Below are positions 3,707-23,880 of a stretch of 64,000 nucleotides of DNA, piece by piece. The DNA is from an uncultured Gammaproteobacteria bacterium (GTDB taxonomy: Bacteria; Patescibacteriota; Microgenomatia; CAZETR01; Amesbacteraceae): NCBI GenBank assembly GCA_964356705.1, contig CAYHIN010000001.1, positions 3,066 to 67,065 on the forward strand, read 5' to 3'. The position numbers and the translations under genes were made by a program. Below the pieces are notes generated by a model. The model was not told the DNA's origin. It was given only the letters and a program-made list of their open reading frames with translations, and did no database searches. How positions within the stretch are numbered: the first letter of the stretch is position 1; each line of letters begins with the position of its first letter.

Positions 3707-3707
3707 G

Positions 3708-4391
3708 TTATTCTCCTCTCTCCCTTCTCTTTTCGAGCTCTTCAGATAACTCCGAGATTATTCTGATAGCCCGGTCCGGAAATGGTACCGCCAGCCCTTC
3801 TACCACCTGGTGTTCAGCCGCCGTTTCTACGTGTAGATCTCCAAAATCAAACATATGTCTAAAAAATCCTCCCGTGATCGCCGTTGGCTGCTCAATATGA
3901 TTTAAGTTGGCATACGATACATGCCGGTATAACAAGTTATGAAAATCGATATCTACTATTCGCTCATTAGTGATAACCAGTACCGAGTAATACCACTTCA
4001 AAAATCGCTCTAAGGTAATCCCCATAGTTACCAGGTACCACACCATCTTGCCTACCCACACATATTCAAACGGCACCGGAGCAAAAATCCCCGTCATGCT
4101 TAGTACTTCTGGCAAAACTAGCATCCCAAGGACCATGAGTATCCAAGTCAGGTTCGTAATCGGATGAGCGCGCAATAGCAGCACTATCTCTTCATCTCCT
4201 TGCTGGTTTACAAACTTTTTCCCCGGTCGCACACAATACGCCCCCATACATTCTCTTCCTCCCTTTTCTCCCACCCGCCCGAGCACCTCATCTACTACTG
4301 TCTTATGATGTTTTGCACCAGACTGAGACACAGGAGTAGAAACCACAGGAGGCACTACTTTTCCATCTTGAGCAACATACACCTCCGGCAT
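3708..4391 (-). CDS. membrane protein with bacterial PH (bPH_2/YdbT-like) domain
   Basis: TM helices followed by ...VLVITNERIVDIDFHNL..., which resembles DUF304/bPH. Confidence 0.45.
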   Translation of the reverse strand: MPEVYVAQDGKVVPPVVSTPVSQSGAKHHKTVVDEVLGRVGEKGGRECMGAYCVRPGKKFVNQQGDEEIVLLLRAHPITNLTWILMVLGMLVLPEVLSMTGIFAPVPFEYVWVGKMVWYLVTMGITLERFLKWYYSVLVITNERIVDIDFHNLLYRHVSYANLNHIEQPTAITGGFFRHMFDFGDLHVETAAEHQVVEGLAVPFPDRAIRIISELSEELEKRRERGE

Positions 4392-4537: not shown

Positions 4538-6358
4538 TTACTTTTTTTCTATATTAAACAATCCACTCTTCACAGCCAGTGTCCCCGGCGCCCGCAAATT
4601 AAAGGCTTTCTTAAAGTTAACCCCCGATATCACCACTTCTCCTCTATTAGTCTGCAGTATCACCTGATCCGTATACCCGTTACTACTGTGTTTCACCGAC
4701 ACGCCCGAGACAGAAGTCACCCTTCCCCCATGTTTATCCGCCTCTTGTGCCATCCTGTCCTTAGACCACGGATTATCAGATCCTCCGTAGCAGGACCGCA
4801 CATCTTCCGGAAATACTCCGCTCATATCCCCGCCATTAGAAACCACAATCGCCGCATTTATCATGTCCGAAAATTCATCCATTTTGAGCCACGGATGAGA
4901 TCTCCCACACGTCTTTCCCGATCGGTCCTTGTACCAGCCTTTATAAAACCAGGGCGATCCTCCCACCTTTTCCCAAGCCCCCGATGCCCAGTTAGTCCAG
5001 TCAGAAGTGGTATCCCAAAACCCAGGTGTAGTATGTCCAATACTCGTGTAGCTGTCTTGATGTCCTCCCGAAGTCGATGCGTACCAAGTATTTACTATTT
5101 CTCCACTAGTCTTTGAGACCACGATCTCTCCTTCCGTTTGTGACACCGCGTCTCCCCATCTTCCCGGATTTCCAGATTTACTACTACTGTATACCTGGCA
5201 CGCCTCGGTCGTACATATCGATCCATTCGCGTTCTGATTACCTATTCTCCATCCTGTATAAGACAGCGCGTATGACCGGGCCGCAATCGCCTGGGCTTTC
5301 ATCGCCTCAAATCCCCCCTGATCCGCCCACGAGGTCGGCATCTCGGCAATCCCTCTCAGATATTTGCCTTCAAATGCCAGCGTCCCGGCACTAGTTTTGA
5401 TTACACCCGGCATACTCACTTTTCTGATTTCTACGTTTCCATAGTAGGCTTCCAATATTTGTTTGTAGTTTTGTCCCGACTTGGCCCGACCATATGCCCC
5501 GTATTGACTCATGCCTTTATAGTGCGGCGCCCCAAATGAAAACATCGCAAATGCCGGTGAGAATCCCGGATTATAGTCGGGTCTGGCAGCCGGATCATCA
5601 GCCAGTGGCACATCCCCTACCGACGTCGCATAAGTTCCAGTTTTAGAAGCCAGTAGTGACTGTTGCCTGGCGGTAAGTGACGCGATTTTTCCTCCTAGAT
5701 CCGACTGATATTTACTCGCTTTGTCCACTTCCACTTGCAAAAAAGCTGCTTGTTTATCCACTCTCGTCTTCAGCCCGTCCAGATTTGTTTTTTGAGTTTT
5801 GAGACTTGTGGCTTGGGCATTGAGATTTGTTATTTCTCCTCCCACCGACACGATCAGTTCCCGGTCTTGTCTAGCTAGTTTTTCTCGGTAAAACAGGTCC
5901 TTAAAAAATTCCGATGCACTCTTCGCCGAAAATAGCACCATCATCATCGACTGTTCCCTTCTTCTTATATAGTCTTGTTTTAGTTTAGCCGCCATCAGCT
6001 GCTCTTTTACTCCGACCTTCACTTCTCGCTCAAATATGTCTTTAGTCAGTTTATCTAGCCGTGTATCTAGTCCCGTTATTTGGGACTTGAGATTTGTGGT
6101 TTGGGATTTGAGCCCATTCAACTCTTTCACATTTGTTGAGTTGGCTTTGGATATCGCATCCAGTATTCCCGAGTATTTACTAATACACCCCGATATCACA
6201 CTAGAGTCCGACAGCTTGCTCGGATCATCGCACTCCTCCGCCCACACTCCTCCCACGCCCAGCATACAAAAGGCAAGGAAAAACAATACATAATACTTTA
6301 TACGTAATACGTGATACACAAGTCTCGGCATTGACTGTATTTTACATGTTAAACTCAA
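4538..6358 (-). CDS. SpoIID/LytB-domain protein with N-terminal coiled coil
   Basis: Signal/TM, long coiled coil, then the EAMKAQAIAARSYALSYTGW motif typical of SpoIID/LytB amidase enhancers. Contains family B and D repeat insertions. Confidence 0.6.
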   Translation of the reverse strand: MSLTCKIQSMPRLVYHVLRIKYYVLFFLAFCMLGVGGVWAEECDDPSKLSDSSVISGCISKYSGILDAISKANSTNVKELNGLKSQTTNLKSQITGLDTRLDKLTKDIFEREVKVGVKEQLMAAKLKQDYIRRREQSMMMVLFSAKSASEFFKDLFYREKLARQDRELIVSVGGEITNLNAQATSLKTQKTNLDGLKTRVDKQAAFLQVEVDKASKYQSDLGGKIASLTARQQSLLASKTGTYATSVGDVPLADDPAARPDYNPGFSPAFAMFSFGAPHYKGMSQYGAYGRAKSGQNYKQILEAYYGNVEIRKVSMPGVIKTSAGTLAFEGKYLRGIAEMPTSWADQGGFEAMKAQAIAARSYALSYTGWRIGNQNANGSICTTEACQVYSSSKSGNPGRWGDAVSQTEGEIVVSKTSGEIVNTWYASTSGGHQDSYTSIGHTTPGFWDTTSDWTNWASGAWEKVGGSPWFYKGWYKDRSGKTCGRSHPWLKMDEFSDMINAAIVVSNGGDMSGVFPEDVRSCYGGSDNPWSKDRMAQEADKHGGRVTSVSGVSVKHSSNGYTDQVILQTNRGEVVISGVNFKKAFNLRAPGTLAVKSGLFNIEKK

Positions 6359-7359
6359 ATCACATGCGCAGATTTTTTCTCCTTACGACTCTTTTTTTAT
6401 TTTTATCAGTCACCCAAACTCAAGCCCAACAGTTTAAATGCATAAAAACCCCAAATTGTGATCCGTGTACAAACTGGTCAACCGCAGCAAACTGTCTCAA
6501 CACTGCCACAAACACAAATCTTTGTAATACCGGGGTAAATCCTTGTACTGCTTTCTCAGCCAGCTGTCCAGACAACGGCTCCCAGCTGGATCAGTTCCAA
6601 GTCCAAACATGTTCCACTGTTCTTCCTGCTTGTTCTAGTCCAAACCTATGTCTCTCAGAAAGCGCCTGCTCAAATCCAGTCTCTGGATTTAGCTGCGGTG
6701 GAAATCTCATATGCTGTGCTCCACCAGGAGAGCCCACTTCTACTCCAGTTCCAACAACCGCTCCTACTGCTTGTGAGACATTTTCCGGACCGTACAACAA
6801 CCCCTTTGTCTGTATGTCTCCCGGCGGGGCAGTCTCGGGAAGTTACGATTGCAATCCAGGCGGATCATCTCCACTGTTTGACCCAACTGCTCCTCCAAAT
6901 AGTTATGACAATGCCTGCGGATGTGCCGCCGCTACAAAAAGTTCATGTTCTCTCATTTGTTGCCACAGTAACAGCACCGTCGGACCACCTGGCACTACGG
7001 GCGTCCCTCCATACCAACCCTCCTCATTATGCGTCCCTCCTAACGGATCTACTTATACAGGTGTAAAAACTCCCTTTGGCTGTCTTCCTTATACTGGAGC
7101 CGATGGTCCAGCAAAAACGACCGTGGTCGTCCTCTCAAACTGGGCCGTTGCCATTTCCTCCAGCATCGCCATCTTTATCATCCTCTTCGCAGCACTTCAG
7201 ATAGCCACAGGCAGTGGTGACCCCAAGCGCATCAAAGCCGGCCAAGAACTCCTTTTCTCCGGTCTCGCCGGCCTATTTTTGATAAGCCTGGCCATTGTTG
7301 TTCTCAACTTTTTGGGAGTAACCATCTTAGGTCTAGATCTTTTGGGCTTCTTCGTCTGA
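6331..7359 (+). CDS. T4SS pilin-like protein (VirB2/TrbC-type C-terminal domain) with N-terminal Cys-rich Pro/Thr-rich extracellular extension
   Basis: Signal peptide, then about 220 aa with more than 30 Cys. The C-terminal 110 aa are paralogous to the downstream pilin array (TM - SGDPKRIKAGQE - TM). Confidence 0.6.
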   Translation: MTVFYMLNSNHMRRFFLLTTLFLFLSVTQTQAQQFKCIKTPNCDPCTNWSTAANCLNTATNTNLCNTGVNPCTAFSASCPDNGSQLDQFQVQTCSTVLPACSSPNLCLSESACSNPVSGFSCGGNLICCAPPGEPTSTPVPTTAPTACETFSGPYNNPFVCMSPGGAVSGSYDCNPGGSSPLFDPTAPPNSYDNACGCAAATKSSCSLICCHSNSTVGPPGTTGVPPYQPSSLCVPPNGSTYTGVKTPFGCLPYTGADGPAKTTVVVLSNWAVAISSSIAIFIILFAALQIATGSGDPKRIKAGQELLFSGLAGLFLISLAIVVLNFLGVTILGLDLLGFFV

Positions 7360-7378
7360 TCGTGCTACACTTTAACTC

Positions 7379-7723
7379 ATGGCCAGTCCACTGTGTGTTC
7401 CATCAGGTGCAACCGGAAATCTAGGTGTCTCTACTCCTTTTGGCTGTCTACCCTTTGGTGGCAATGCAGGTCCTGCTACCCCGATGATCACTGTTTTAGT
7501 AAATTGGAGCGTGGGTCTAGCCGCAGGCGTAGCTCTCCTCACTCTTATTTATGCCTCTTTTCAGATCGTCACCGCCGCAGGTGACGCCAAGCGCGTCCAA
7601 GCCGGCCGCGAGTTAGTAACTGCCAGCATCGGCGGTCTGATCTTAGTCGTCATGGGTATAGTTATCCTTAATTTTTTAGGTGTCAGCGTCCTAGGATTGG
7701 ACGCTCTAGGCTTTAAGATATAA
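7379..7723 (+). CDS. VirB2/TrbC-like T4SS pilin paralog
   Basis: Two TM helices separated by the loop AAGDAKRVQAGRE. Near-duplicate of the C-terminus of the 6331 ORF. Confidence 0.6.
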   Translation: MASPLCVPSGATGNLGVSTPFGCLPFGGNAGPATPMITVLVNWSVGLAAGVALLTLIYASFQIVTAAGDAKRVQAGRELVTASIGGLILVVMGIVILNFLGVSVLGLDALGFKI

Positions 7724-7733
7724 TTGTAAGCAC

Positions 7734-8036
7734 ATGCGCACACTCGCCCAAATCAGCATTCCCCCTCCAACTGGTCTCAGATTTTCCAATTACAACGATC
7801 TTCCCGCCGATCTCTTTACCCGCATTTTATTATTCGCCATGGCAGCCAGTGGCCTTATATTTTTTGTTCAGCTCATCATGGCCGGTTTCAATCTCCTCAC
7901 TTCTTCCGGTGACCCAGCCAAGATCCAGTCAGCCACCAAAGCTCTCACCAATTCTCTCACCGGGCTTATCATTGTCATTAGTACTTATTTCATCGCCCAG
8001 ATTATCCAAGCCATTTTGGGCCTCCAGATAGTCTAG
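7734..8036 (+). CDS. VirB2/TrbC-like T4SS pilin paralog
   Basis: TM - SSGDPAKIQSATKALT - TM. Confidence 0.6.
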   Translation: MRTLAQISIPPPTGLRFSNYNDLPADLFTRILLFAMAASGLIFFVQLIMAGFNLLTSSGDPAKIQSATKALTNSLTGLIIVISTYFIAQIIQAILGLQIV

Positions 8037-8039
8037 CTT

Positions 8040-8363
8040 ATGGCCAGTACACCTATAAACAGTATTTTTACAAATCATCCCTCAGCAGGTATTGTGGCCG
8101 CCACTCCCGCCTCACTCATCTCATATCTACTCCCAAACATTATGGCCGCGGCTGGCATCATCTTCTTTCTCATGATTCTGGGCGGCGGCTTCATGATGGT
8201 CAAAAACGCCGGTGGCAGCCCAAGTGCCCAAGATACCGCAAAAGCCAGGTCAGCAATTACTATGGGCATCATTGGTTTCTTGCTTGTAGTATCCGCCTAC
8301 TTTATACTTCAGATAGTCCAAGCCCTAACCGGAGTCAACTTTATAATTACTCCCATTTTTTGA
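8040..8363 (+). CDS. VirB2/TrbC-like T4SS pilin paralog
   Basis: TM - AGGSPSAQDTAKARSAIT - TM. Confidence 0.6.
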   Translation: MASTPINSIFTNHPSAGIVAATPASLISYLLPNIMAAAGIIFFLMILGGGFMMVKNAGGSPSAQDTAKARSAITMGIIGFLLVVSAYFILQIVQALTGVNFIITPIF

Positions 8364-8366
8364 CAG

Positions 8367-8729
8367 ATGAAGCTACTCGCCCAACAATTCGGTACTGTTG
8401 AAAATCCCTTTCTACCCAAATATTACAATGTTCCCGGATATATAGGGTTTTCCCAGGGCCAAGGTCTTATCATTCTTCTCAATAATCTTGTCAAATTCAC
8501 CATCGTCCTTGCGGGCCTCTACACTTTTTGGAACATCATCGCCGCAGGCTTTATGTTCATGTCCGCGGGTGGCGAAGCAAAAAACATTACCAAAGCCTGG
8601 GACAAGATCTGGCAATCACTCATTGGTTTGTTATTAGTAGCCGCTTCCTTTATACTTGCGGCCGTATTCGGATATCTGATCTTTGGTGATACTAAAGCGT
8701 TATTACAACCTCGAATATTTACCCCATGA
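8367..8729 (+). CDS. VirB2/TrbC-like T4SS pilin paralog
   Basis: TM - SAGGEAKNITKAWDKI - TM. Confidence 0.55.
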   Translation: MKLLAQQFGTVENPFLPKYYNVPGYIGFSQGQGLIILLNNLVKFTIVLAGLYTFWNIIAAGFMFMSAGGEAKNITKAWDKIWQSLIGLLLVAASFILAAVFGYLIFGDTKALLQPRIFTP

Positions 8730-9100
8730 AAAACTTACTCGCCCAAGGTACTCCTATTGGCAATTTCGATGGCCTAGGACCTCTGGGAAACACCAGAAAT
8801 CTATATCTGGGTGGGGCAAATACAGGCGGTGCATTTGAAAAAGTCATCTCTTTGGTAATCGGTGTTCTTACTGTCTCTGCAGGGCTTTGGTTTCTTTTCC
8901 AAATCTTCACAGGAGCTATCTCCTGGATATCCAGTGGTGGGGACAAACAAGCCGTCCAAAACGCTCAAAAAAGAATGTCTCACGCCATAATTGGCTTGTT
9001 CGTCTTGGTCGCAGCTTACGGACTCATAGCTACGGTCGAGCTTGTCTTTGGACTTCAGATATTAGATTTTCAAGGTCAGTTTTTAAATCTTCGCCCATAG
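8726..9100 (+). CDS. VirB2/TrbC-like T4SS pilin paralog
   Basis: TM - SSGGDKQAVQNAQKRMSHAIIGL - TM. Confidence 0.6.
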   Translation: MKNLLAQGTPIGNFDGLGPLGNTRNLYLGGANTGGAFEKVISLVIGVLTVSAGLWFLFQIFTGAISWISSGGDKQAVQNAQKRMSHAIIGLFVLVAAYGLIATVELVFGLQILDFQGQFLNLRP

Positions 9101-9102
9101 AT

Positions 9103-9438
9103 ATGTTGCTTGCCAGAATCATCAACCCCGCTCTAAACAGTAAAGTCGGCAACACTACGATCCAGGGAGATGGTCCTGGTATTTTGCAGCTGTTTTTAAG
9201 AAACTTTATCGATATTGCCCTCGGCACCGCCGGCGTCATCTTTTTCTTCATGTTATTACGTGGAGGTTACGAATATCTCACCGCCGGCGGAGACAAAGAG
9301 GCCGTCCAAAAGGCAACGAAGAGACTCACCACTTCGTTCATTGGTATTGCAATCATCTTCTCTCTTTTTGCCCTCGTCTTTATTGTTGAGGCATTATTTG
9401 GCATCTCGCTGTTGCAGATAAACATTCCCACTATATGA
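9103..9438 (+). CDS. VirB2/TrbC-like T4SS pilin paralog
   Basis: Start taken at the internal ATG (MLLARIIN), because the upstream part of the 8887 ORF overlaps the previous gene. TM - AGGDKEAVQKATKRLT - TM. Confidence 0.55.
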   Translation: MLLARIINPALNSKVGNTTIQGDGPGILQLFLRNFIDIALGTAGVIFFFMLLRGGYEYLTAGGDKEAVQKATKRLTTSFIGIAIIFSLFALVFIVEALFGISLLQINIPTI

Positions 9439-9764
9439 ACCTTCTTGCCCAAGCCACCATCAATCTCACAAACCCCTTATCACCTTATAGAAACCTCTTC
9501 TCTCTTCGTCCCTCTAGTTTAGTTTCAGCCGCTATCAGTCTCCTCCTTGGGGCAGCAGGTGTCACGGCCTTCATTTATCTTCTCGTGGGCGGTATCCAGT
9601 GGATTACTAGCAGTGGCGACAAAGAAGGACTGGACAAAGCCAAGAAAAAAATTACCCACGCTCTCATCGGTTTGGCGATCGTCTTCTCAGCTTACGCTTT
9701 GATCTTCATCATCCAAGCATTGTTCAACATTAGTGTCATCGGTGTCAATATTTCTCCTATTTAA
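9435..9764 (+). CDS. VirB2/TrbC-like T4SS pilin paralog
   Basis: TM - SSGDKEGLDKAKKKITHALIGL - TM. The 3' 80 nt are nearly identical to the next paralog. Confidence 0.6.
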   Translation: MNLLAQATINLTNPLSPYRNLFSLRPSSLVSAAISLLLGAAGVTAFIYLLVGGIQWITSSGDKEGLDKAKKKITHALIGLAIVFSAYALIFIIQALFNISVIGVNISPI

Positions 9765-9821
9765 TTCCTTAGTACTTTGCACTTAGCTCTTAGCACTATA
9801 TAATAAACTTAATGAAGGGAG

Positions 9822-10256
9822 GTGAATAATCAAGTGAGCAAAATACAAAAAATAATTCAGTTTGGGACCGCTTTGGGTACAGTATTGGCAGTCAACCCTG
9901 CTTCCGTTCTGGCCCAAGGAGCTTTTGATCCCACAGACAATGTAAATATCGCTCCCGAAGCAGGCGTTTTCAGCAAACTACCTGGTCTTCGTCCGTCCGC
10001 TTTCATTAGTGGAGCCATCAGTTTCCTGCTCGGAGTAGCAGGTGTAGTCGCCTTTATCTTCCTACTTTGGGGAGGCCTACAGTGGATCCTCGCCGGTGGC
10101 GACAAAGAAGGTACCGAAAAGGCTCGCAAGAAGATCACCTCCGCTCTCATCGGTTTGGCGATCGTCTTCTCAGCTTACGCTTTGATCTTCATCATCCAAG
10201 CGTTGTTCAACATCAGTGTCCTTGAAGTGTCTCTGAAACCACTAGGTAATCTCTAA
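9822..10256 (+). CDS. VirB2/TrbC-like T4SS pilin paralog with clear signal peptide
   Basis: Signal ALGTVLAVNPASVLAQG, then TM - AGGDKEGTEKARKKITSALIGL - TM. Confidence 0.65.
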   Translation: MNNQVSKIQKIIQFGTALGTVLAVNPASVLAQGAFDPTDNVNIAPEAGVFSKLPGLRPSAFISGAISFLLGVAGVVAFIFLLWGGLQWILAGGDKEGTEKARKKITSALIGLAIVFSAYALIFIIQALFNISVLEVSLKPLGNL

Positions 10257-10335
10257 ATTACCTTATGGTAGATGAATCAATTCCGTCATTCCGGACGAAA
10301 GTCTAGTTAGACTTCCGGAATGACGGCACATATCT

Positions 10336-10626
10336 ATGCCAGCCAAACTTAGCAATTTACAAGATGTATTTTCCAACGTCTTGGTTTCTGTTCTCTCGCT
10401 CATAGGTCTTGTGACTTTTGGCATGCTTTTGTGGGGCGGAGTCCAATATCTTACGGCGGGCTCCGATAAGGAGGCCGCAGGCAGGGCCAGAAACACGATT
10501 ACCTACGCTCTCATTGGTCTCATCCTCGCCATTTCCTCCGTCATGATCATCAATCTTTTGGGCACCTTCTTAGGTCTGGATTTCAGCACGTTCAACATTT
10601 GTCTCCCCGGGACCACTTCCTGCTAA
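10336..10626 (+). CDS. VirB2/TrbC-like T4SS pilin paralog
   Basis: TM - AGSDKEAAGRARNTITYALIGL - TM. Preceded by a strong stem-loop. Confidence 0.6.
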   Translation: MPAKLSNLQDVFSNVLVSVLSLIGLVTFGMLLWGGVQYLTAGSDKEAAGRARNTITYALIGLILAISSVMIINLLGTFLGLDFSTFNICLPGTTSC

Positions 10627-10640
10627 TATATAATAGTTCC

Positions 10641-13600
10641 ATGCTCCGTAAATTTTTCTTTTTCCTCATCGTATTTCTTCTCACGATCCATATTTTCCAT
10701 CCCCCAAGCACCCAAGCAGATTACCCAAACGACTGTGCTCTCGATTATCCCATTTGTCACACCAGTATTCCTCCAGGGACACCCGTAGGCACTTGTCTCA
10801 ACCACAGTGTCATAGGCTGCAACACCTCTTCCGGAGTACCGGGAGTTTGGTGCTGCCCCTCCTCATTTATTTTCCCTTCACTCACACCGACCCCCCCATC
10901 TGTCCCCACTTGCATCGCCAATGGCAATTATTGCGTAGCCACAAATGTCGCTTGTGATCCCGGCCACACCAGAGGTCAAGGTGGCAATTGTGAAACTGGA
11001 AAAATCTGCTGTGCCATCACCCTTCCTACTGTGCCTCCTCCCGGCGGCCCTCCGGGTCCCATTCCCCTACCCACCTATCCGACAAATTTTAGCCCCCTAG
11101 AATATCCCTGCAACACGACCACCGACGAAGAGTTTCATCCCCTACGTCCCTATCCGGCTTCTCCCTGCGACCCCCTCATTCCCAAAAAACAGGAGCCCGA
11201 TTTTCTTTCCTTCGCCTGCGGCAAGAGCCTAAATACTCTGGGAGAGTATCCCGTCAGCCGCAGTTTTACCCAAGCTCAGTTAGACGCCATGTCCCCCATT
11301 TTTCAAAACTACGGCGAGCCTTACCGTTGCGGCGCCCAGGTCTGTATCCGCAAACGCTCCGTTTTTGATATTGCCCTCGATTTATCGAGTGCCAAGTTGC
11401 CAATTATCGGCAACACCCAAGATCCCCTCGACGACGCCACCAAAGTCAACAATTATCTATCTTGGTATCTGGCCGGCACCAATCCCACCTGGCTCGAGGA
11501 CCTAAATTTGGCCACCCCAGCCCAAAACGTCAACTCCCAGTGTATCGGCACCTCACTGGCCACCTTCATGAACACCGTTGTATCTGGGACCACAAATTTA
11601 CGCAACATCCGCCTCACTTCTCCAGCCTTCAATCTTACCAATCCCGCCGAGCAGGATATTTTTATCGCCATGAGCCAGGCCGGAGCCAACTTTGCAGATA
11701 TCGACGCATTTGCCGGCAACACCTACACTCTAAATGGCGTAGCCGCCTACGATTGGGTCATCAGTCCCTCATTTCGCGGAGCCGACGGCAAAACCTGGAA
11801 AGAAAAATTCACAAGTTTCAACAAAGGCATTATCTTTACCGAATTCGGGGATTTTGCCACTTTTGACAACCCTCCCGGATCTCCAAATCGCGCCTCGGTC
11901 ATAAGCGCCATGCGCCAAGAATTCACCAATACCGCAGGCGATGGTGTCGTCAAATCCATCAACTATTTCAACGCTTTTGGTGGCAATCCCCAATTTATAG
12001 GCCACCAATTGTCAATCTCAGAGCTCCAGGTTATTACCAGCTCAAATTATTCAAAAAGCGGGGTCAATTCCGCCCAGGGAGTCAATCGCGATTTTCCCCC
12101 CAGAGTGGGCAGTGCCGGTCTCAAGTGGAGCGTGGAGATCATCACCTCGCCCGGTGATGAGACAGGTGCTATCGAATCCATCAACGCCGCCCATCGCGCA
12201 GGTGTCATCCCCATTATTCGCCCTTGTTACGGCAATTCCTGTGGTTTTGCCGATCCAGTTGTATATGTAGATTTCATCAGTCGGGTATCCCAGCGTGTGA
12301 CCGATCAGTCCCGCGAGATTTGGTTCATAGCCGGCCCAAACGAGCCCGCCGGTGAGCATTGGGCCGCCCCTCTTTGTGGCACTGCCGGCCAGCCCGTAGC
12401 CAGTATCGATTCTTTCTTGACTTACGCCGGTCCTATTCGTAAGCTCCTACCCCAGTATTCTCTGGATACCATCCGCTACGTTCTGGCTACCAATCAAGGG
12501 CGCAATGTCCACAATTATTTACTCGATACTCAAGGCCGCCGTATTTCCCAAGTTCCATCCTTCATTCGTCTCTATTCTCCCACCGATATCTGGACCAAGC
12601 TCTTCCAAAGAGTTCCCCTCGCCACTATGGAAGACGTCGTGGGCGAGGTCACCGTGGGCCTCATTACCTCTCCTAGATCCGACGGCTCATCTCCCCAACC
12701 ACCCGACGTTTATGTTGTAGACCCCAGCCACCCCGATGCCATGCGCCTTACCATCAAAGACGGATCGGACTCCCGCCTCTATTTCCCTCATCTCAAGACC
12801 GTAAGTTCCTTAGTCGAAGTCCTAAATGCTATCTCGAGACCCAAGCTCTCCCAAAACTATCGCCCCGATGAGCGAAACGTCACCCAGTATATCAACGAAC
12901 ACCAAGGTATCGATGACTCCACTCCTATCCAAAGAAAATCCAACGAAGGCAATTACACCGGACTCACTCGCAACACCGAAATTAGAGAAGGCGAGCCCGC
13001 CCCTACAGCTCTCTTTGGCCAAAATGATCATTTTGAGTTTGACCAGCGCTGCGAGCTCACGACCACCCAGGACGCCGTAGGTGACAATCTTTTTGGCCAG
13101 ACTATCAATGGTCGCCTCGCCTATACACATGATCTAAAGTTTGACCCCGTCGTCCAACCCAATGCTTGTCTTCCAGATTTTGCCGTCTGTACACCTGGCG
13201 TCGACGTTTGTTGTGACAATGCCGTATGCAGCAACGTCACTCTTGGTGGTATTGATTACGGCGACCGTTGTCACGGCGGCAATCCCAATTCCAGTTCCAT
13301 TCCCACTGAAGCTCGTGTCGCAGTCTTTACCAAGACTCCTCTCATCGATCGCTTTTATGGCGATCTTATTTCCAACTCCAACTCTTTCTTTAGACGTTTC
13401 GTCAATTGGTACGACCGGTCCACCGGCGGCCCAGATACAACGATTAGGTCAGGTTCTCTTACTTTTCCCGCCAAGACCCAAGTCGGTTATACTGCTACAG
13501 CCCCCATTCCTCCACCCGTAAGCCCCGAGACAGCCCCAGGCAATCCCAAAGCCGGAGCCGGCAACAATACCGGCGGCGCCGAGATTTATTTCCCCAGGCT

Positions 13601-15128
13601 CGGAAGTCTGGCCGATTATTTCCTAGGTGGTCCCACCAACGAGAGATTAAATCTCCAAAAGATGTTCCGTCCCAAAAACTTTGGTAGTCTTATCGGCCCG
13701 GGTGGTGCCGGCATTTTGGCCGCCTGCCAGCCGTATCTCTCCAATTTCCCCGGATCCATTACCGTAAACATCCAAAATCCCAAAAACGTCTTCTCCAAAG
13801 TCGGCGACAGTATTACCGTTTCGCCTAATTTCCTAGATGCCTTTGCCGGAGCATACAACCTCGGTAGTCATACCGGCCTTCAATCGGTAATCAATTTCTT
13901 CACTCCCTTATCTTTCACGGAAAATACCCTTGCCGCAGGCATCGGGTGGAACACCCAGGACCTTATAAATAATAATTTTTCCGCTCTAGAGTCTGAATAC
14001 ACCCGTACCAAGCCTGCCGTGGCCATTATCATGATCGGCACCAACGATTCCGGTGGCTCCAACCAAGTTGTGGTCCCAGTCTACACCGATCGTTTAGAAC
14101 GCATCGTAAATTACACTGTTAGCAAGGGTATAATTCCCATCCTCAGTACTCTCCCCCATCTCACCAACGCCAATCCCCAGCACAATACCAATACCGAATT
14201 GCTAACCGGAGCCATCAAAGACGTTTCGACCAGACTGGGTGTTCCCCTCATGGACTACCGCCTCGCCACCGAGCAAATAAATACTGCTGCACGCAACTGG
14301 GGCATTAGTACTGACAACATCCATCCTTCCGTCGGCGGTGGCAATGCCGGCGATCTTTCCGATTTACCCATGAGTGAAGGCGGCTACAATGTCCGAAACT
14401 TCGTCTCCCTTTGCGCCCTAGATGCAGTTTGGAAGACCAGACTGGGAGGAGATAGCTCTAGTAGTGGAGACTGCTTCACGGCAGCCCAACCCGTTACCGC
14501 TTCCTGCTCGGCGCCCGGATCCACTCCCCTAAACTATGCTTGTCACACCAATCTTGAGCTCAAATCCATAATCCAAGAGTCAGCAAATAAGTTCGGGGTA
14601 AATCCCAGCGTCCTCTTAGGTATTCTTAGTGTCGAAACCAGGAATGGTATTTTTGGAATTACTTCAGGTGAAGTGAGACGCCACTCCACTTCCACCTCAC
14701 AAACCGGCTTTACTCCATATATTTGTCAACCAAATTCTTGTGGCGCCATGGGAGCCATGCAGCTTTTGACTGGCATTGGCGTCCAGCCCAGTTGTTCTCA
14801 AGCCTACGGTATCAACAATTGGGCTCTATATGGTTCGGCCGTCGTAGAAGCTTGCAAAGCCCCCTCTGGTTACGGACCAAATCCCGGTAATATCCGAGAC
14901 TCAATATACGCCGGAGCAAAAATGATCGGCAGCTTCGGCCAGAACTCAAATTCCGAAGCCGGAGTCAAAGAAATCGGTCGCAGATATTTTGGCAACGACA
15001 CTTCCCGTTTTGATCTCTTTGTAAACTTGGATTACATAAACGACTGTGTCCCAGGCTACACCACACCTTCCTCAGCTCGCAGCATGACCTATGGTGAATA
15101 TCTTTGGGAAGTAGCCCGAGTTAGATAA
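10641..15128 (+). CDS. giant secreted cell-wall hydrolase: Cys-rich N-domain, SGNH/GDSL esterase domain and C-terminal SLT/lysozyme-like domain
   Basis: Start taken at MLRKFFFF (signal peptide). GDSL blocks are VGDSIT, MIGTNDSGG and DNIHPS. SLT-like motifs are QESANKFGV...LSVET...AMGAMQLL. The ORF track starts at 10599, overlapping the previous gene. Confidence 0.65.
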   Translation: MLRKFFFFLIVFLLTIHIFHPPSTQADYPNDCALDYPICHTSIPPGTPVGTCLNHSVIGCNTSSGVPGVWCCPSSFIFPSLTPTPPSVPTCIANGNYCVATNVACDPGHTRGQGGNCETGKICCAITLPTVPPPGGPPGPIPLPTYPTNFSPLEYPCNTTTDEEFHPLRPYPASPCDPLIPKKQEPDFLSFACGKSLNTLGEYPVSRSFTQAQLDAMSPIFQNYGEPYRCGAQVCIRKRSVFDIALDLSSAKLPIIGNTQDPLDDATKVNNYLSWYLAGTNPTWLEDLNLATPAQNVNSQCIGTSLATFMNTVVSGTTNLRNIRLTSPAFNLTNPAEQDIFIAMSQAGANFADIDAFAGNTYTLNGVAAYDWVISPSFRGADGKTWKEKFTSFNKGIIFTEFGDFATFDNPPGSPNRASVISAMRQEFTNTAGDGVVKSINYFNAFGGNPQFIGHQLSISELQVITSSNYSKSGVNSAQGVNRDFPPRVGSAGLKWSVEIITSPGDETGAIESINAAHRAGVIPIIRPCYGNSCGFADPVVYVDFISRVSQRVTDQSREIWFIAGPNEPAGEHWAAPLCGTAGQPVASIDSFLTYAGPIRKLLPQYSLDTIRYVLATNQGRNVHNYLLDTQGRRISQVPSFIRLYSPTDIWTKLFQRVPLATMEDVVGEVTVGLITSPRSDGSSPQPPDVYVVDPSHPDAMRLTIKDGSDSRLYFPHLKTVSSLVEVLNAISRPKLSQNYRPDERNVTQYINEHQGIDDSTPIQRKSNEGNYTGLTRNTEIREGEPAPTALFGQNDHFEFDQRCELTTTQDAVGDNLFGQTINGRLAYTHDLKFDPVVQPNACLPDFAVCTPGVDVCCDNAVCSNVTLGGIDYGDRCHGGNPNSSSIPTEARVAVFTKTPLIDRFYGDLISNSNSFFRRFVNWYDRSTGGPDTTIRSGSLTFPAKTQVGYTATAPIPPPVSPETAPGNPKAGAGNNTGGAEIYFPRLGSLADYFLGGPTNERLNLQKMFRPKNFGSLIGPGGAGILAACQPYLSNFPGSITVNIQNPKNVFSKVGDSITVSPNFLDAFAGAYNLGSHTGLQSVINFFTPLSFTENTLAAGIGWNTQDLINNNFSALESEYTRTKPAVAIIMIGTNDSGGSNQVVVPVYTDRLERIVNYTVSKGIIPILSTLPHLTNANPQHNTNTELLTGAIKDVSTRLGVPLMDYRLATEQINTAARNWGISTDNIHPSVGGGNAGDLSDLPMSEGGYNVRNFVSLCALDAVWKTRLGGDSSSSGDCFTAAQPVTASCSAPGSTPLNYACHTNLELKSIIQESANKFGVNPSVLLGILSVETRNGIFGITSGEVRRHSTSTSQTGFTPYICQPNSCGAMGAMQLLTGIGVQPSCSQAYGINNWALYGSAVVEACKAPSGYGPNPGNIRDSIYAGAKMIGSFGQNSNSEAGVKEIGRRYFGNDTSRFDLFVNLDYINDCVPGYTTPSSARSMTYGEYLWEVARVR

Positions 15129-15302: not shown

Positions 15303-16847
15303 ATGCCCAAAATAAAGAATTTCCTATCTTCTCTCCTTCTCTGTCTTACGCTCTCCTCCTTCTTTCCCTACTTTGCATTAGCCGTGGATGGTCCTTGGTA
15401 TAACCAAAATCCCCAACAATTCGGCCAAAAAGTCTTTGGGGGCGATCAAAACGAAATCTTTGGCGAACGCTATACCTTTGCCCAAGTTAACTGGATAATA
15501 AACAGTTTAAATTTGATATTAAATCCAACCAACGGCCAAACCCCGGACGCCATAAAAGGTATCGTTTGTGCCATCATCCCTCTTATCTCTCCAGGCTCTC
15601 CCTGCCCCATTGCCTCTACGCCTGAAAATAAGTGGATTGCTTACTCACAACTAGGTATAAATGGGCTTCTTGTTGGGGGCATCACCGAAATTACCGCTTC
15701 CCCACCAGCATCCGGAATTTTAGAAATAGGCGAGACTCTTGCAAAATTTGACCCTGCAACTCCCGTCCAGGCCCAAGGAGGTTATGGATTTGAAAGCTTA
15801 AACGGACTCAGAGTCATTTGGGGCGCTTCGCGCAACATGGCTTATCTCATTATGGTGATTTTGCTTATCGCCACCGGCTTTATGATCATGTTTCGAGTCA
15901 AGATCAATCCCCAAACCGCAGTCTCACTTCAAATCATGATTCCAAAAGTTATTTTCACTCTACTCCTAGTTACCTTTTCCTATGCAATAGCTGGGCTCGT
16001 AATCGATCTTGTTTATGTTGTCCTCGCCTTCGTAATCTCTGGACTCACGCTGTCCCAAGCAATTACCCCTCTCAGTCTTCCTGGTTCAGTGGGCTGGTTC
16101 TTTACCCCAGACTTTGGCAAGATATTCGGCTACTATCTTTTGTCGTGGCTCGTACAGATAGCAATCGGCGGAATTGCCGGTCTAATTGGAGTGGGCCTTG
16201 CTACACTGATGCCACCCTTAGCTCCATTTGTTGGATTACTAGGAACAATCTTTGCTCTTATTGAAATTATTTTTGCATTTGTACTTCTCTGGCTTCTATT
16301 TAAAGTTTGGTGGATGATGGTCAAAACCTATTTAACACTCATGTTTTTGATAGTTATTGGTCCTTGGCAAATTATGTTGGGCTTACTTCCCGGACAACAA
16401 GGTTTTGGAGGGTGGTTCAGAAATATTATAGCCAATGCCTCCGTATTTCTAACTGTTCCTATTATGTTTTTACTCAACATGTTCTTCTGGCCGATGAGTC
16501 CTTTCAGTCCGTTAGGTCAAGTAAATGGTGGAGCATCAGATTTACCCAGTTTTCCTCTCTTCGCTACAAAAGGCGGAATTTTTGGATTCGCAGTAGGCTT
16601 TGCCATATTATCGATGATCCCCAAAATTGCTGATATTATTAGAGACGCTCTCAAGATCCCACCATTCAAATATGGCTCAGCTCTAGGCGAGGCTCTAAGT
16701 CCACTTAAGATGGTAACCTCTCCTGCGGGTGGAGCAATCTCAGCAGGTGGTAGCAACGAACTAAAGGGTGCTACCACTGGATTACAATATGCCTCTGGCG
16801 GCATACGTCAGGCTGCTGGAGACTGGTTGAAAGGATCTATCAGGTAA
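15303..16847 (+). CDS. VirB6/TrbL-like polytopic T4SS membrane protein
   Basis: Signal peptide, about 180-aa extracellular domain, then at least 6 TM helices. Position between the hydrolase and VirB4 matches ConG/VirB6 in Gram-positive T4SS. Confidence 0.5.
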   Translation: MPKIKNFLSSLLLCLTLSSFFPYFALAVDGPWYNQNPQQFGQKVFGGDQNEIFGERYTFAQVNWIINSLNLILNPTNGQTPDAIKGIVCAIIPLISPGSPCPIASTPENKWIAYSQLGINGLLVGGITEITASPPASGILEIGETLAKFDPATPVQAQGGYGFESLNGLRVIWGASRNMAYLIMVILLIATGFMIMFRVKINPQTAVSLQIMIPKVIFTLLLVTFSYAIAGLVIDLVYVVLAFVISGLTLSQAITPLSLPGSVGWFFTPDFGKIFGYYLLSWLVQIAIGGIAGLIGVGLATLMPPLAPFVGLLGTIFALIEIIFAFVLLWLLFKVWWMMVKTYLTLMFLIVIGPWQIMLGLLPGQQGFGGWFRNIIANASVFLTVPIMFLLNMFFWPMSPFSPLGQVNGGASDLPSFPLFATKGGIFGFAVGFAILSMIPKIADIIRDALKIPPFKYGSALGEALSPLKMVTSPAGGAISAGGSNELKGATTGLQYASGGIRQAAGDWLKGSIR

Positions 16848-20279: not shown

Positions 20280-21338
20280 ATGGAGCAACATGCAGTTCCT
20301 CAAAACATATCGTCGTACGAATTTCGCCTAGTAGGAGACATGACTCTCAAGCAGTTCTTTCAGCTGGCAGGCGGCATTGTTTTAGGGGTCGTCATTTTTC
20401 GCCTCCCCATTCCCGTTTTTATCAAATACCCTCTTGTTTTTATCTCAGTCATCGTGGGTGTTCTCATGGCCTTTGTTCCCATCAACGGTCGCCCTTTCAC
20501 CGCCTGGATCACTGCTTTTTTTAGAGCTATCTATGCTCCCACCGAATTTTTATGGGCTCCGGATACAGAGATTCCAGTTGCCAGCAACATTGCACCCATA
20601 ATTAGCGCCACCTCTCCTTTTCATTCCACCACCACAAATTCAAACACCCCGTCCACGCTTAGCGTGGACAAAGGAACGCTTAGCGTTCCAGCTCCAACTC
20701 AAAAAATTCCCTCTCCTGGATCAGGAGAGGGCAAGGGTGAGGTTTTGAAGGAAATACCCATGACTCCCGTAGTTTCCATGCCGAAACCTACAACCAAAGA
20801 AACTACTTTCAGTTCCTACACGCCACCACCTGCTACGCTTAGCGTAGCAAAAGGGACGCTTAGCGTTCCCAAACCAGTCATTGAACCAAAGTCAGTCATA
20901 GAACCCAAACCAATTTCTCCTATACAAGTTCCCTCTCCTGAATCAGGAGAGGGCCAGGGTGAGGTCGTCGGCCCCGTCACCCAACCTCTAAAAAAACCAG
21001 TCCCAGAGATCAATCTTCCCCAAGTTCCAGCAGCATCCAGCGCGACATCAGAGACCCAAAACGTTCCCACTCCCACTCAACCAAATGTCCTGGCCGGCAT
21101 GGTCACTGACCGTTCTGGAACAGCTATCGAATCTGCCATAGTCGAAATTATCGATAGTGTCACCCAGATTCCAGCCAGAGCCTTACGCACAAATCGCACC
21201 GGTCTCTTTCAGATTGTTACTCCTTTGAAGCCATCTAGTTACCAGGTCATAGTCGAAAAAGAAGGCCTTACATTTCCTCCAGTCAGCATCGTGGCAAATG
21301 GAAAAATTATCCAACCCATAATCATTAAAGCCACATGA
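20280..21338 (+). CDS. VirB3-like membrane protein with C-terminal extension (tandem 70-aa repeats plus CarboxypepD_reg-like beta-sandwich)
   Basis: N-terminal two TM helices as in VirB3/PrgI. Internal duplication TLSVxKGTLSVP...PSPxSGEGxGEV. C-terminal GMVTDRSGTAIESAIVEIID... Confidence 0.5.
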   Translation: MEQHAVPQNISSYEFRLVGDMTLKQFFQLAGGIVLGVVIFRLPIPVFIKYPLVFISVIVGVLMAFVPINGRPFTAWITAFFRAIYAPTEFLWAPDTEIPVASNIAPIISATSPFHSTTTNSNTPSTLSVDKGTLSVPAPTQKIPSPGSGEGKGEVLKEIPMTPVVSMPKPTTKETTFSSYTPPPATLSVAKGTLSVPKPVIEPKSVIEPKPISPIQVPSPESGEGQGEVVGPVTQPLKKPVPEINLPQVPAASSATSETQNVPTPTQPNVLAGMVTDRSGTAIESAIVEIIDSVTQIPARALRTNRTGLFQIVTPLKPSSYQVIVEKEGLTFPPVSIVANGKIIQPIIIKAT

Positions 21339-22003
21339 AACCCTCTACACAATCCCATTTAGATATCTACGACATCCAAAACGATCTACTGATCCTCAAG
21401 GACGGCTCAGTGTGTCTCCTCTTGGAGGTCTCCGCTATCAACTTCGGCCTCTTCTCCGAAAGAGAGCAAGAAGCCACCATTTATGCATATGCTCAGTTGC
21501 TCAATTCTCTCAATTTTACGATCCAAATAGTCATCACCAGCAAAAGAAAAGATATTACTGATTATCTAGACAAGCTCGAGGTCAGGCTATCATCTGCCCC
21601 TTCCCCAAAGATCAAAGACCAGCTTCTCAAATATCGCGATTTTATAAAGTCCATCGTCCGCCAGGGTAATGTCTTGGACAAGAAATTTTTCATTTCCATC
21701 CCCTTCTCGTCTCTGGAATTAGGTGTCAGCTCAGCTCTCAGTGCTTTTTCAAAAAAACCCACCAAGCCCCTCTCTCCTATCCCCACGATAGTCGAAAGAG
21801 CCACAAACAATCTCACTCCCAAACGAGATCATTTGATCAGATTGTTAGCCCGGATCGGCCTCAAATCTCGCCAGCTCGGAACCCTTGAGCTTCTCCAATT
21901 GTTCTATGACTCCTACAACGCCACAGATTTGGGTACCAAGGTGACACTTCCCATACAAGCAGGTGTCATCCTGAGCGAGCGTACACCTAAACCAACATCA
22001 TGA
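21335..22003 (+). CDS. probable N-terminal fragment of VirB4-family ATPase
   Basis: DIQNDLLILKDGSVCLLLEVSAINFGLFSEREQEATIYAYAQLLNSLNFTIQIV resembles the N-terminal region of Gram-positive VirB4 homologs. ATGA overlap with the following ATPase ORF. Confidence 0.45.
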   Translation: MKPSTQSHLDIYDIQNDLLILKDGSVCLLLEVSAINFGLFSEREQEATIYAYAQLLNSLNFTIQIVITSKRKDITDYLDKLEVRLSSAPSPKIKDQLLKYRDFIKSIVRQGNVLDKKFFISIPFSSLELGVSSALSAFSKKPTKPLSPIPTIVERATNNLTPKRDHLIRLLARIGLKSRQLGTLELLQLFYDSYNATDLGTKVTLPIQAGVILSERTPKPTS

Positions 22004-23880
22004 AATTCCCAACTCTCAAAATCCCAAACATAAAGAAAAGTCATCTACCCTCTCCTGGCGAAGGAGAGGGACCGAGGGTGAGGTTAACAGAGCCAGTCTC
22101 AAAAAAATCCCTCACCACCGCCAAAACTGTCCGCGACATCATCGCCCCTTCCTCTATCTCCATCGATTTCAACTATCTCAGACTTGGCGATCTCTACTAC
22201 CGCACCTACTTCACAAATATCAATCGCCGCTTTGTCGATGCCAACTGGCTCTCAGCTCTCATCAATTTCGACCATTCGCTCAACATCTCTATGTTTATTT
22301 ATCCCGTCGAAAGCAAAAGCACTCTCGATGATCTCAGAAGAAAAATCGCCGAAATGGAAGCCGAGATCAGTACCGATATGCAAAGAGGCCGTGTCGTCGA
22401 TCCCTCGACCCAAGCTAAGCTCGAGGACGCCCTTTCTCTCCAAGACCAGCTGGTCAAAGGCATTGAACGTTTCTTTCAGTTTTCCCTCTATGTTACGATT
22501 CCTGCCGAATCCTCATCAGAGTTGGACAATGTCGCAAAACAGGTCACGAGCACTCTTTCCTCACTCCAGCTCACAGCCACTCCCGCCCTTCTGGAGCAAG
22601 CCGAGGGTTTCAAGACCACTCTCCCCACTTGCGTCGACCATTTGGGCGTTCTCCGCAACATGGATACTACATCCCTTGCTACTACTTTTCCTTTTACCTC
22701 ATCTGAGCTTTCCAGCAACGATGGTGTGCTATATGGTCTCAATGAGCACAACGGCAGTCTCGTTCTCTTTGATCGCTTTAGTCTAGAAAATGCCAATACG
22801 GTAGTCTTTGCCAAGGCTGGGGCTGGAAAAAGCTTCCTGGTCAAGCTCGAGATTCTAAGGTCGACCATGTTCGGCACCGAGATTATCATTATTGATCCCG
22901 AAAACGAATACAAAACTCTTTGTGAGGCCGTGGGTGGTGAATACATTAACTTCTCTTTCAATTCCCAAAACCGCATCAATCCTTTTGACTTGTCGCTTCT
23001 GACCCAATATTCCGACGAAAACGAGCTCAATCTCAAGATTCAGTCTCTCCACTCCCTCTTCAAAGTCATCATGGGCAACCTCAATCCTACCGAAGACGCC
23101 CTTCTCGACCGTGCTCTTACCCAGACGTACAAAATGAAGGGTATTACTCCGGACCCTGAGACTCAAAAAAAGACTCCTCCTCTTATGGAGGATCTCTACA
23201 AAGCCTTTGTGGGCATGGAAGACCCCGAAGCCAAGTCTCTGGCCGACCGCATCGAAAAGTTTGTCAAGGGTTCTTTTGCCGGCATCATCGACCAGCCTAG
23301 TAATATCACTCTCAAAAATCCCTTTACCGTCTTCTCTGTCCGTGATCTGGAGGATTCTCTCAAGCCTATCGCCATTTTTATTATTCTCGACTTCATCTGG
23401 ACCAAGATGAGACGCGACCTCAAAAAGCGCATTCTCGTCGTAGACGAGGCTTGGTATCTCATGCGCTATCCCGATTCCGCCGCCTTCTTATATGGTATTG
23501 CCAAGCGCGCCCGCAAGTATTTCCTCGGCTTGACCACTATTACCCAAGACGTCGAAGATTTTCTGGCTTCTGATTATGGCAAACCCATTGTCACCAACTC
23601 TTCTATTCAGATTCTCATGAAGCAGTCTCCTGCGGCAATTGACAAAGTCGCCCAACTCTTTTACTTGTCAGAGGGAGAAAAGCATCTCCTACTCTCAGCC
23701 AACGTCGGAGAAGGTCTGTTCTTTGCGGGCAACAATCACGTCGCCATCCGATTTGTAGCCAGTCCTGACGAATATCAGTTGATTACCACCAAGCCAGGCG
23801 ATATTCTAGCCAAACAGAAGACCGATGCTGAAAACGCAGTTCGTCTAGTTACTCAAGAAGAACCCACCCAAAATGCCTGA
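22000..23880 (+). CDS. virB4: VirB4/TrbE/ConE-family T4SS ATPase (C-terminal two-thirds)
   Basis: Walker A VVFAKAGAGKSFLVK and Walker B ILVVDEAWYLM. 626 aa; together with the upstream fragment about 848 aa, a typical VirB4 size. Confidence 0.8.
   Translation: MKFPTLKIPNIKKSHLPSPGEGEGPRVRLTEPVSKKSLTTAKTVRDIIAPSSISIDFNYLRLGDLYYRTYFTNINRRFVDANWLSALINFDHSLNISMFIYPVESKSTLDDLRRKIAEMEAEISTDMQRGRVVDPSTQAKLEDALSLQDQLVKGIERFFQFSLYVTIPAESSSELDNVAKQVTSTLSSLQLTATPALLEQAEGFKTTLPTCVDHLGVLRNMDTTSLATTFPFTSSELSSNDGVLYGLNEHNGSLVLFDRFSLENANTVVFAKAGAGKSFLVKLEILRSTMFGTEIIIIDPENEYKTLCEAVGGEYINFSFNSQNRINPFDLSLLTQYSDENELNLKIQSLHSLFKVIMGNLNPTEDALLDRALTQTYKMKGITPDPETQKKTPPLMEDLYKAFVGMEDPEAKSLADRIEKFVKGSFAGIIDQPSNITLKNPFTVFSVRDLEDSLKPIAIFIILDFIWTKMRRDLKKRILVVDEAWYLMRYPDSAAFLYGIAKRARKYFLGLTTITQDVEDFLASDYGKPIVTNSSIQILMKQSPAAIDKVAQLFYLSEGEKHLLLSANVGEGLFFAGNNHVAIRFVASPDEYQLITTKPGDILAKQKTDAENAVRLVTQEEPTQNA

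Follow-up and report, generated by a model that had tools for sequence, protein, structure and literature searches.

A giant secreted protein behind the pilin array of a Microgenomatia type IV secretion-like locus combines an SGNH esterase domain, a circularly permuted barrel and a divergent lysozyme-like domain

The closest described counterparts of the protein reported here are PrgK (of pCF10; LytM-SLT-CHAP) and TraG (of pIP501; SLT-CHAP), multidomain peptidoglycan hydrolases of Gram-positive type IV secretion systems (T4SSs) that act as functional equivalents of VirB1. Patescibacteria, or Candidate Phyla Radiation (CPR) bacteria, depend on other cells, and in Saccharimonadia the T4SS genes are essential for epibiotic growth (PMC12102498). 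A 2025 survey found no adhesins in the T4SS loci of Patescibacteria and, outside Paceibacteria, VirB1 homologues that for the most part were unlinked to virB4; it suggested that pili may be built without VirB1 and that other glycosidases may take its place (PMC12102498). A second point of reference is wall chemistry: O-acetylation blocks lytic transglycosylases and lysozymes, and in Neisseria the esterase Ape1 works with the transglycosylase LtgA (PMC6174289, PMC1199599, PMC7083599). Here we describe a giant modular secreted protein of 1495 amino acids (aa), encoded by a single open reading frame (ORF) with an ATG start (10641..15128, + strand) in a stretch of 64,000 nucleotides, hereafter the window, from the Amesbacteraceae contig CAYHIN010000001.1 (GCA_964356705.1, positions 3,066 to 67,065). 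The protein is rather likely to be an envelope-breaching subunit associated with a T4SS or pilus, an orphan scaffold fitted with a cleaver of the peptidoglycan backbone, an enzyme that removes O-acyl groups from glycans, and a further glycosidase. In this role it would probably provide the wall-opening enzyme that, according to surveys, is mostly missing near such systems.

From its N-terminus onward the protein comprises a signal peptide, two Cys-rich repeats, modules A (aa 145-284), B (aa 290-585) and C (aa 590-1018), the GDSL domain and a lysozyme-like domain E, a map obtained by blastp and iterated hidden Markov models (HMMs) against the 39 full-length homologues collected. The putative signal peptide (aa 1-26; 10641..10718, +), read by eye from the sequence MLRKFFFFLIVFLLTIHIFHPPSTQA/D, consists of a basic n-region, a hydrophobic run and STQA/D, and the giant protein reads as one exported through it. 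An upstream TTG at 10599 would add 14 aa, but the extension would overlap the pilin gene 5′ of the giant gene. An identical 1495-aa entry, unnamed there, is already included in a protein collection whose source is NCBI. The two Cys-rich repeats (aa 27-130; 10719..11030, +) hold 12 Cys, each ends in CC, and a Pro-rich linker follows; a Pfam search gave no family match for them. An earlier note on this DNA had placed roughly 1000 aa of Cys-rich domains upstream of the enzymes. Of the 38 Cys in the whole protein, those that form truly Cys-rich stretches lie only in aa 30-125 (12 Cys) and aa 843-877 (6 Cys), and what the region holds besides is a TIM barrel resembling those of the glycoside hydrolase (GH) clan GH-A and a conserved orphan core. 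The whole protein has no match in NCBIfam, and single-sequence PDB searches with the whole protein and with the C-terminal domain returned only generic SGNH matches or none.

Module B (aa 290-585; 11508..12395, +) is a (β/α)8 barrel with clan GH-A-like motifs, as seen by AlphaFold, Foldseek and alignments. In the AlphaFold model of aa 140-1020 it forms eight alternating β/α units with a predicted local distance difference test (pLDDT) score above 90, and a Foldseek search with this 881-residue A-B-C model retrieved TIM barrels only, of no specific GH family, and nothing for the A-C core. The residues that are invariant in the module B alignments are Glu401 (TEFG), Asn567-Glu568-Pro569 (NEP) and the Asn360 and Tyr362 of an N-x-Y motif; judged from these motifs, Glu401 is the candidate nucleophile and Glu568 the candidate acid/base. 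These are hallmark motifs of clan GH-A in reversed order, with TEFG about 165 residues before NEP. In the native chain TEFG ends strand 3 and NEP follows strand 8, rather than the canonical NEP at strand 4 and nucleophile at strand 7, and the canonical spacing is regained only once a circular permutation is undone.

Relatives of the barrel allow this permutation to be traced. An exhaustive profile search with the module B alignment retrieved 391 cluster representatives at E <= 1e-3, and permutation variants were counted in the best 150 of these after local re-scoring: 126 proteins of the re-scored set share the order of the window, 26 have the halves swapped into the canonical order NEP -> NxY -> TExG, and 9 have one or the other of two further cut points. 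When native module B is aligned by BLAST with four canonical-order proteins (P0125, P0176, P0149 and P0155), each pair gives two high-scoring segment pairs (HSPs) in swapped order; when B is artificially re-permuted, each gives one colinear HSP, the one with P0125 running across the junction over 284 columns (E = 5e-31). Given the swapped HSPs, the colinear HSP after re-permutation and the existence of canonical-order relatives, module B represents a circularly permuted form of a GH-A-like barrel family, its chain running from β5 to β8 and then from β1 to β4. A chance reversal of NEP and TEFG, or a pair of degenerate tandem domains, is excluded by the single barrel of the model and by the colinear permuted alignment.

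The barrel family comprises at least four circular-permutation variants and many architectures. Its chains start at β5 (as in the window), at β1 (26 of the top 150), just after β7 (3 proteins) or just after β2 (6 proteins); the halves match individually with E-values between 1e-20 and 1e-40, and the relatives concerned include P0089, P0096, P0106, P0123, P0141, P0145, P0153, P0165, P0177 and P0125. Standalone short relatives of 360-600 aa exist as well. Module B of the window has no Pfam match of its own. PF11790 (Glyco_hydro_cc) exceeds its cut-off of 21 in the B modules of two relatives (25.1 and 26.4 bits), where the matches cover only β5-β7, the C-terminal half of the profile, and the canonical-order relatives score about 18 bits against it, one of them in a colinear match that begins at the NEP region. 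Neither for the permuted barrel nor for its canonical-order relatives did profile searches bring up a relative among PDB sequences, and comparing module B with the one GH5 insert of P0020 by hhalign gave no useful information. No circularly permuted clan GH-A barrel surfaced in the literature searched, which is weak evidence of absence given its incomplete coverage; circular permutation of a glycosidase barrel has a precedent in GH70 as compared with GH13. A natural series of this kind, with several circular permutants of one (β/α)8 enzyme family, lends itself to work on how proteins evolve and can be designed.

Domain E (aa 1295-1495; 14523..15125, +) closes the protein and has a lysozyme-like α-helical fold. 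Its motifs are SVETRNG at aa 1330, with the candidate catalytic Glu1332 (14634-14636), AMGAMQLL at aa 1369, with GAMQ at 1371-1374, PxxNIxD with Asp1420, and a Y-x-G motif. The residue that follows Glu1332 is Thr, so that the motif is ET and not the ES of the earlier note. Homologues were collected and a local HMM of the C-terminal domain was then iterated; it detects domain E in 21 of the 39 full-length proteins and in the fragment P0040, and querying with only the C-terminal domain in a word-indexed search for homologues added a single new protein. Across the 21-sequence alignment only Glu1332 and Asp1420 are invariant. Compared with PDB sequences, the domain E profile retrieves MltC, MltE/EmtA, MltB and EtgA at marginal E-values (0.07-2), and every such match pairs the invariant Glu with the catalytic Glu of the 'IES' motif (IES/AIES in MltC and MltE). 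A close homologue cluster is named 'Transglycosylase SLT domain-containing protein' in UniRef, and in a family-wide Pfam scan one member matches SLT_3 and one SLT_2, both weakly. Domain E is a divergent GH23/SLT-like lysozyme-fold domain with Glu1332 as a plausible catalytic residue. The giant protein encoded right behind a pilin array in these Microgenomatia conceals a divergent lysozyme-like domain at its end.

The SGNH/GDSL esterase domain (aa 1054-1233; 13800..14339, +) scores above the Pfam cut-offs of both Lipase_GDSL_2 (PF13472; E = 1.3e-10, 42.5 bits against 32.9) and PF00657 (E = 2.6e-7, 31.4 bits against 23.6). The canonical SGNH blocks that had been noticed earlier are all found, with GDSIT at aa 1055, AAGIGW at about 1098-1103, GTNDSGG at 1133 and DNIHP at 1225. 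Catalytic blocks I, II, III and V are intact (Ser1057; Gly1100/1102; Asn1135; Asp1225 and His1228), and the same blocks, including the catalytic Ser, Asp and His, are kept in homologues P0002-P0004 and P0009. The separation of about 200 aa between the SGNH blocks and the SLT-like region has to be revised, Ser1057 lying 275 aa and the last SGNH block 107 aa before Glu1332. The esterase region also weakly matches phrog_18023, annotated as a tail fibre protein (E = 5e-4), and the rest of the giant protein has no phage-family match. In a related metagenomic locus, L002, whose homologue P0037 has no GDSL domain, an Acyl_transf_3 (AT3) O-acyltransferase gene (8547-9602, -) lies just upstream of the giant gene, with a single pilin gene (9634-9987) between the two and a PAP2 gene nearby; the AT3 gene hints at a tie between these loci and glycan O-acylation.

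The earlier note paired an O-acetyl-peptidoglycan esterase-like domain with a lytic transglycosylase to open O-acetylated cell wall. In the strict form of this model, an Ape-like SGNH domain would do nothing other than de-O-acetylate N-acetylmuramic acid (MurNAc), and the domain next to it would then be free to act as a true lytic transglycosylase and form 1,6-anhydroMurNAc ends. By analogy with Neisseria, such a mechanism is chemically sound and plausible as one of several possible pairings in the giant protein: lytic transglycosylases need a free C6-OH and the cooperation of Ape1 with LtgA is established (PMC1199599, PMC7083599), and in the window protein the two domains are adjacent, some 60 aa apart, with catalytic residues intact in both. 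The identification of the SGNH domain as an O-acetyl-peptidoglycan esterase, however, is not supported: a PDB sequence search to E = 10 returned only generic SGNH and PAF-acetylhydrolase chains, none of the Ape1 type, and no specific likeness to Ape1, PatB or OatA. Nor does the esterase stay with its supposed partner. In P0010 (GDSL-GH5-like-A-C-E) and P0025 (GDSL-like-B-A-C) it is N-terminal, beside the GH5-like module or the barrel and far from the lysozyme-like domain, and in P0009 (GDSL-A-C-M23) it occurs with an M23 peptidase, no lysozyme-like domain being detected. This shuffled placement makes an esterase-barrel pairing as likely as an esterase-SLT pairing. Moreover, the weak tail-fibre match suggests deacetylases of surface polysaccharides, and in PrgK, a T4SS protein, the domain predicted to be SLT proved to be a muramidase (PMC11323569), so the SLT fold alone does not guarantee lytic-transglycosylase chemistry. 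We therefore hold the strict esterase-then-transglycosylase scheme to be unlikely, and if the esterase and the cleaving domain do cooperate, the protein would be a natural fusion of the Ape1-LtgA type of pairing.

The core that carries these enzymes consists of modules A (11073..11492, +) and C (12408..13694, +), both delimited by homologue mapping and each present in 38 of the 39 full-length proteins. Module A is marked by the motif EFHPLRPYPASPCDP...LPIIGNT...YLSWYL and nearly invariant residues, and AlphaFold models it as long β hairpins (pLDDT 82-95); module C is modelled with mixed confidence. Neither module has a Pfam, NCBIfam or PDB-sequence relative, also when the family profile is compared with PDB. 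Module C contains a 6-Cys knottin-like insert (aa 842-877; 13164-13271, +), recognised by a Cys spacing of the inhibitor-cystine-knot type, C-x6-C-x6-CC-x4-C-x13-C, with sub-threshold matches to the spider-toxin families Toxin_12 and huwentoxin-I; at this site the homologues carry Cys-rich inserts that differ in length.

Around this core the modules are shuffled. Module B is placed between A and C, as in the window, or ahead of A; in P0020 a canonical GH5 occupies the A-to-C slot. The lysozyme-like domain is the most recurrent domain of the family, and GDSL, GH5, barrel and M23 are shuffled accessories. Judging by the domain orders, the GDSL domain in particular appears as a recurrent, movable accessory that stands beside a glycosidase barrel as often as beside the lysozyme-like domain. 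That M23 and GH5 are swapped in at the same positions among family members is expected of a wall-processing scaffold. Tandem giant-protein paralogues with differing modules, for instance C-E followed by B-A-C, occur in loci L014, L022, L023 and L025.

Such shuffling leans slightly to a target-matching, host-directed role, in which an epibiotic CPR cell would present the protein on its pilus or T4SS as a weapon or entry tool that digests the host envelope, with swappable modules that match host chemistry in the manner of phage tail depolymerases. We give this reading a serious chance, though one short of even. It is consistent with accessories (permuted barrel, GH5, GDSL and M23) that differ and shuffle while the core stays constant, with the spread of the barrel over permutation variants and architectures, with the resemblance of the GDSL region to a phage tail-fibre family and with the two tandem paralogues of some genomes, as well as with the T4SS requirement of epibiotic Saccharimonadia and the adhesin-free T4SS loci of Patescibacteria (PMC12102498). 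Self-directed hydrolases of Gram-positive T4SSs, PrgK and TraG, are nevertheless likewise multidomain and variable (PMC12102498, PMC11323569), and no immunity gene is evident beside the giant gene in metagenomic loci L001-L003. A bolder extension, which we offer as speculative and hold to be improbable, would make the A-C core the missing adhesin or tip-like part of the Patescibacteria T4SS pilus and the whole protein a host-envelope 'drill', whose swappable enzyme cartridges (esterase, barrel, lysozyme-like and M23) would set which host walls an epibiotic CPR cell opens.

The setting of the gene argues for a link with secretion. A VirB2-like T4SS pilin paralogue array (6331..10626, +; PF18895 matches on the ORFs tested) ends 14 nt before the giant gene, and a PrgI/VirB3-like gene (20280-21338, +; PrgI E = 2.2e-7) and a VirB4-type ATPase gene (22000-23880, +; P-loop_TraG E = 4.6e-32, AAA_10 E = 1.3e-13) lie further downstream. 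The order SpoIID / pilins / giant gene / ORF of about 540-580 aa / large ORF on the - strand / PrgI / VirB4 is kept in L001-L003, and in a scan of species-representative genomes, which gave 33 loci, pilins lie directly upstream in 26. The T4SS-like character that the earlier note ascribed to the locus is thereby borne out. This setting also bears on a nutritional role, in which the protein, as a secreted esterase and glycosidase, would scavenge environmental glycans or necromass and sit in a T4SS locus only incidentally. Glycan-degrading enzymes do typically contain GH5/GH-A-like and SGNH modules, and the barrel has its short standalone relatives. With the post-pilin position kept in those 26 of 33 species-level loci and in three metagenome loci, with a conserved part that is the A-C core and not the enzymes, and with a peptidoglycan-type lysozyme fold in the most recurrent domain, we consider this role very improbable.

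For the envelope-breaching subunit that we favour, we infer what each enzyme acts on, in which order they act, what the core does and which cell's wall is cut, as follows. The protein would be exported via its signal peptide, and the A-C core would anchor or position it at the secretion or pilus apparatus. The GH23/SLT-like domain would cut the peptidoglycan backbone of MurNAc and N-acetylglucosamine, with Glu1332 as general acid. The SGNH esterase (Ser1057, Asp1225, His1228) would remove O-acyl groups, most likely O-acetyl, from a wall glycan, and the permuted barrel (Glu568 as acid/base, Glu401 as nucleophile) may cleave a second, non-peptidoglycan polysaccharide of the wall or surface. Acting jointly, they could breach, at one spot, a wall that is acetylated and decorated with polysaccharide, and the pilus or channel would pass there through the cell's own wall or into that of an attached cell. 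Glu1332, Ser1057, Glu401 and Glu568 are the candidate catalytic residues that we name for mutation.

Several observations weigh against this reading. HMM detection in the genome loci places domain E in 9 of 33 and the GDSL subtype of the window in 1 of 33, which makes the three-enzyme set lineage-specific and no requirement of the system. The missing Ape1, PatB or OatA likeness of the esterase counts here too, and the larger ORFs scanned in the window include no peptidoglycan O-acetylation genes. For the C-terminal domain, what stands of the earlier SLT-like assignment is the GH23-like fold with its invariant Glu aligned with MltE and MltC; at the level of Pfam it falls short, SLT_2 reaching 13.7 bits against a cut-off of 24.3 (E = 0.036), and Foldseek matches of the domain are weak (E-values 0.1-4). 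Finally, the core is conserved yet carries no assigned function, and the protein could be primarily structural or adhesive.

All 33 loci of the genome scan lie in metagenome-assembled genomes (MAGs) of Amesbacteria, Woesebacteria or the 'Patescibacteria group'. Many of these MAGs, like the source of the window, are titled 'uncultured Gammaproteobacteria bacterium' (L004, L006, L007, L012, L014, L018, L020, L022, L028, L031, L033 and L035), and one record of this name is a complete chromosome of 0.81 Mb. These titles are probably placeholder or wrong taxonomic labels. The window also encodes dnaA, dnaN, yidC, leuS, groEL and a transfer-messenger RNA (tmRNA; 1049-1458, -), and the locus is therefore chromosomal, in agreement with the report that Microgenomatia T4SS loci lie near dnaA and dnaN (PMC12102498).

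Among the neighbours of the giant gene, a SpoIID-domain protein (4538..6358, -; PF08486 E = 7.9e-14) diverges from the start of the pilin array and may be a second glycan-strand-cleaving enzyme of the locus; SpoIID-domain proteins of about 550-600 aa occupy the same divergent position in L001 (1828-3489), L002 (1-244) and L003 (648-2393). Downstream follows a hydrophobic, apparently polytopic protein of 514 aa (15303..16847, +) that has no Pfam match and may, from its position, hold the place of VirB6; the counterpart ORFs after the giant gene encode 539 aa in L001 and 582 aa in L002. A 925-aa ORF rich in charged residues (16852-19629, -) has no Pfam or PHROG match, and its counterparts at the same position in L001 and L002 have 853 and 1046 aa. 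A 222-aa ORF (+) stands between the PrgI/VirB3-like and VirB4-type genes (within 20280..23880), and a 1279-aa ORF of the locus (23873-27712, +) again has no Pfam or PHROG match. In related loci the pilin arrays hold inserted toxin-antitoxin pairs (PhdYeFM/ParE, BrnT/CopG) and AAA_14/DUF4143 ATPase genes, at 3581-4122 and 4197-7937 in L001 and at 5164-5722 and 7195-8445 in L002. Elsewhere in the window, a free-standing LAGLIDADG_3-domain ORF (60559-61329, +) adjoins a tRNA-Cys gene (60469-60540, -), and no rRNA genes were found in the 64 kb. GC skew on the + strand is strongly negative across 1-64000 (-0.07 to -0.42 in 2-kb windows), independent of gene orientation and with no change of sign at dnaA/dnaN (28209-30914).

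Compared with the enzymes of known fold, module B resembles clan GH-A (nearest Pfam family PF11790) in its eight-stranded barrel, the NEP motif, the Glu of T-E-x-G and the N-x-Y on the preceding strand, and departs from it in a chain that begins at the β5 equivalent, which puts the nucleophile on strand three and NEP on the final strand. Relative to the GH23 enzymes MltF, Slt70, MltC and MltE and the goose-type lysozymes, domain E has an identity of 12-16%, lies below the Pfam SLT cut-offs, follows its Glu with Thr or Gly rather than Ser, and has the additional invariant Asp1420 and several disulfide-type Cys. Phage tail fibres and tailspikes with SGNH deacetylases offer a likeness in kind, an SGNH module on a large extracellular protein that targets an envelope; the match of the giant protein to them differs in being weak and limited to the esterase region. 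The Ape1-LtgA pair of Neisseria likewise couples an SGNH esterase with a GH23-type cleaver, cleavage there requiring prior de-O-acetylation (PMC7083599, PMC1199599). Unlike that pair, the two domains here share one polypeptide, the esterase has no specific sequence link to Ape1, and the coupling of the two is putative. An SGNH-SLT fusion was not described in the literature searched, whose incomplete coverage makes this weak evidence of absence.

It is PrgK and TraG that the giant protein most resembles as a system component: it belongs to a monoderm-type T4SS locus, is putatively exported, and joins an SLT-like lysozyme fold to other wall-active domains (PMC12102498, PMC11323569). Unlike them, it has neither CHAP nor LytM and carries an SGNH esterase and a GH-A-like barrel instead, on an orphan core of about 570 aa, and its SLT-like domain stays below Pfam thresholds. 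Its gene follows a pilin array, and Gram-positive conjugative systems (the MPF-FATA class) are without one (PMC12102498). Multidomain wall hydrolases of T4SSs, PrgK, TraG and VirB1 among them, are already known; what is new is the set of an SGNH esterase, a GH-A-like barrel and a divergent GH23 domain, together with the large orphan core and the place directly behind a pilin array, in a lineage thought to be largely without VirB1.

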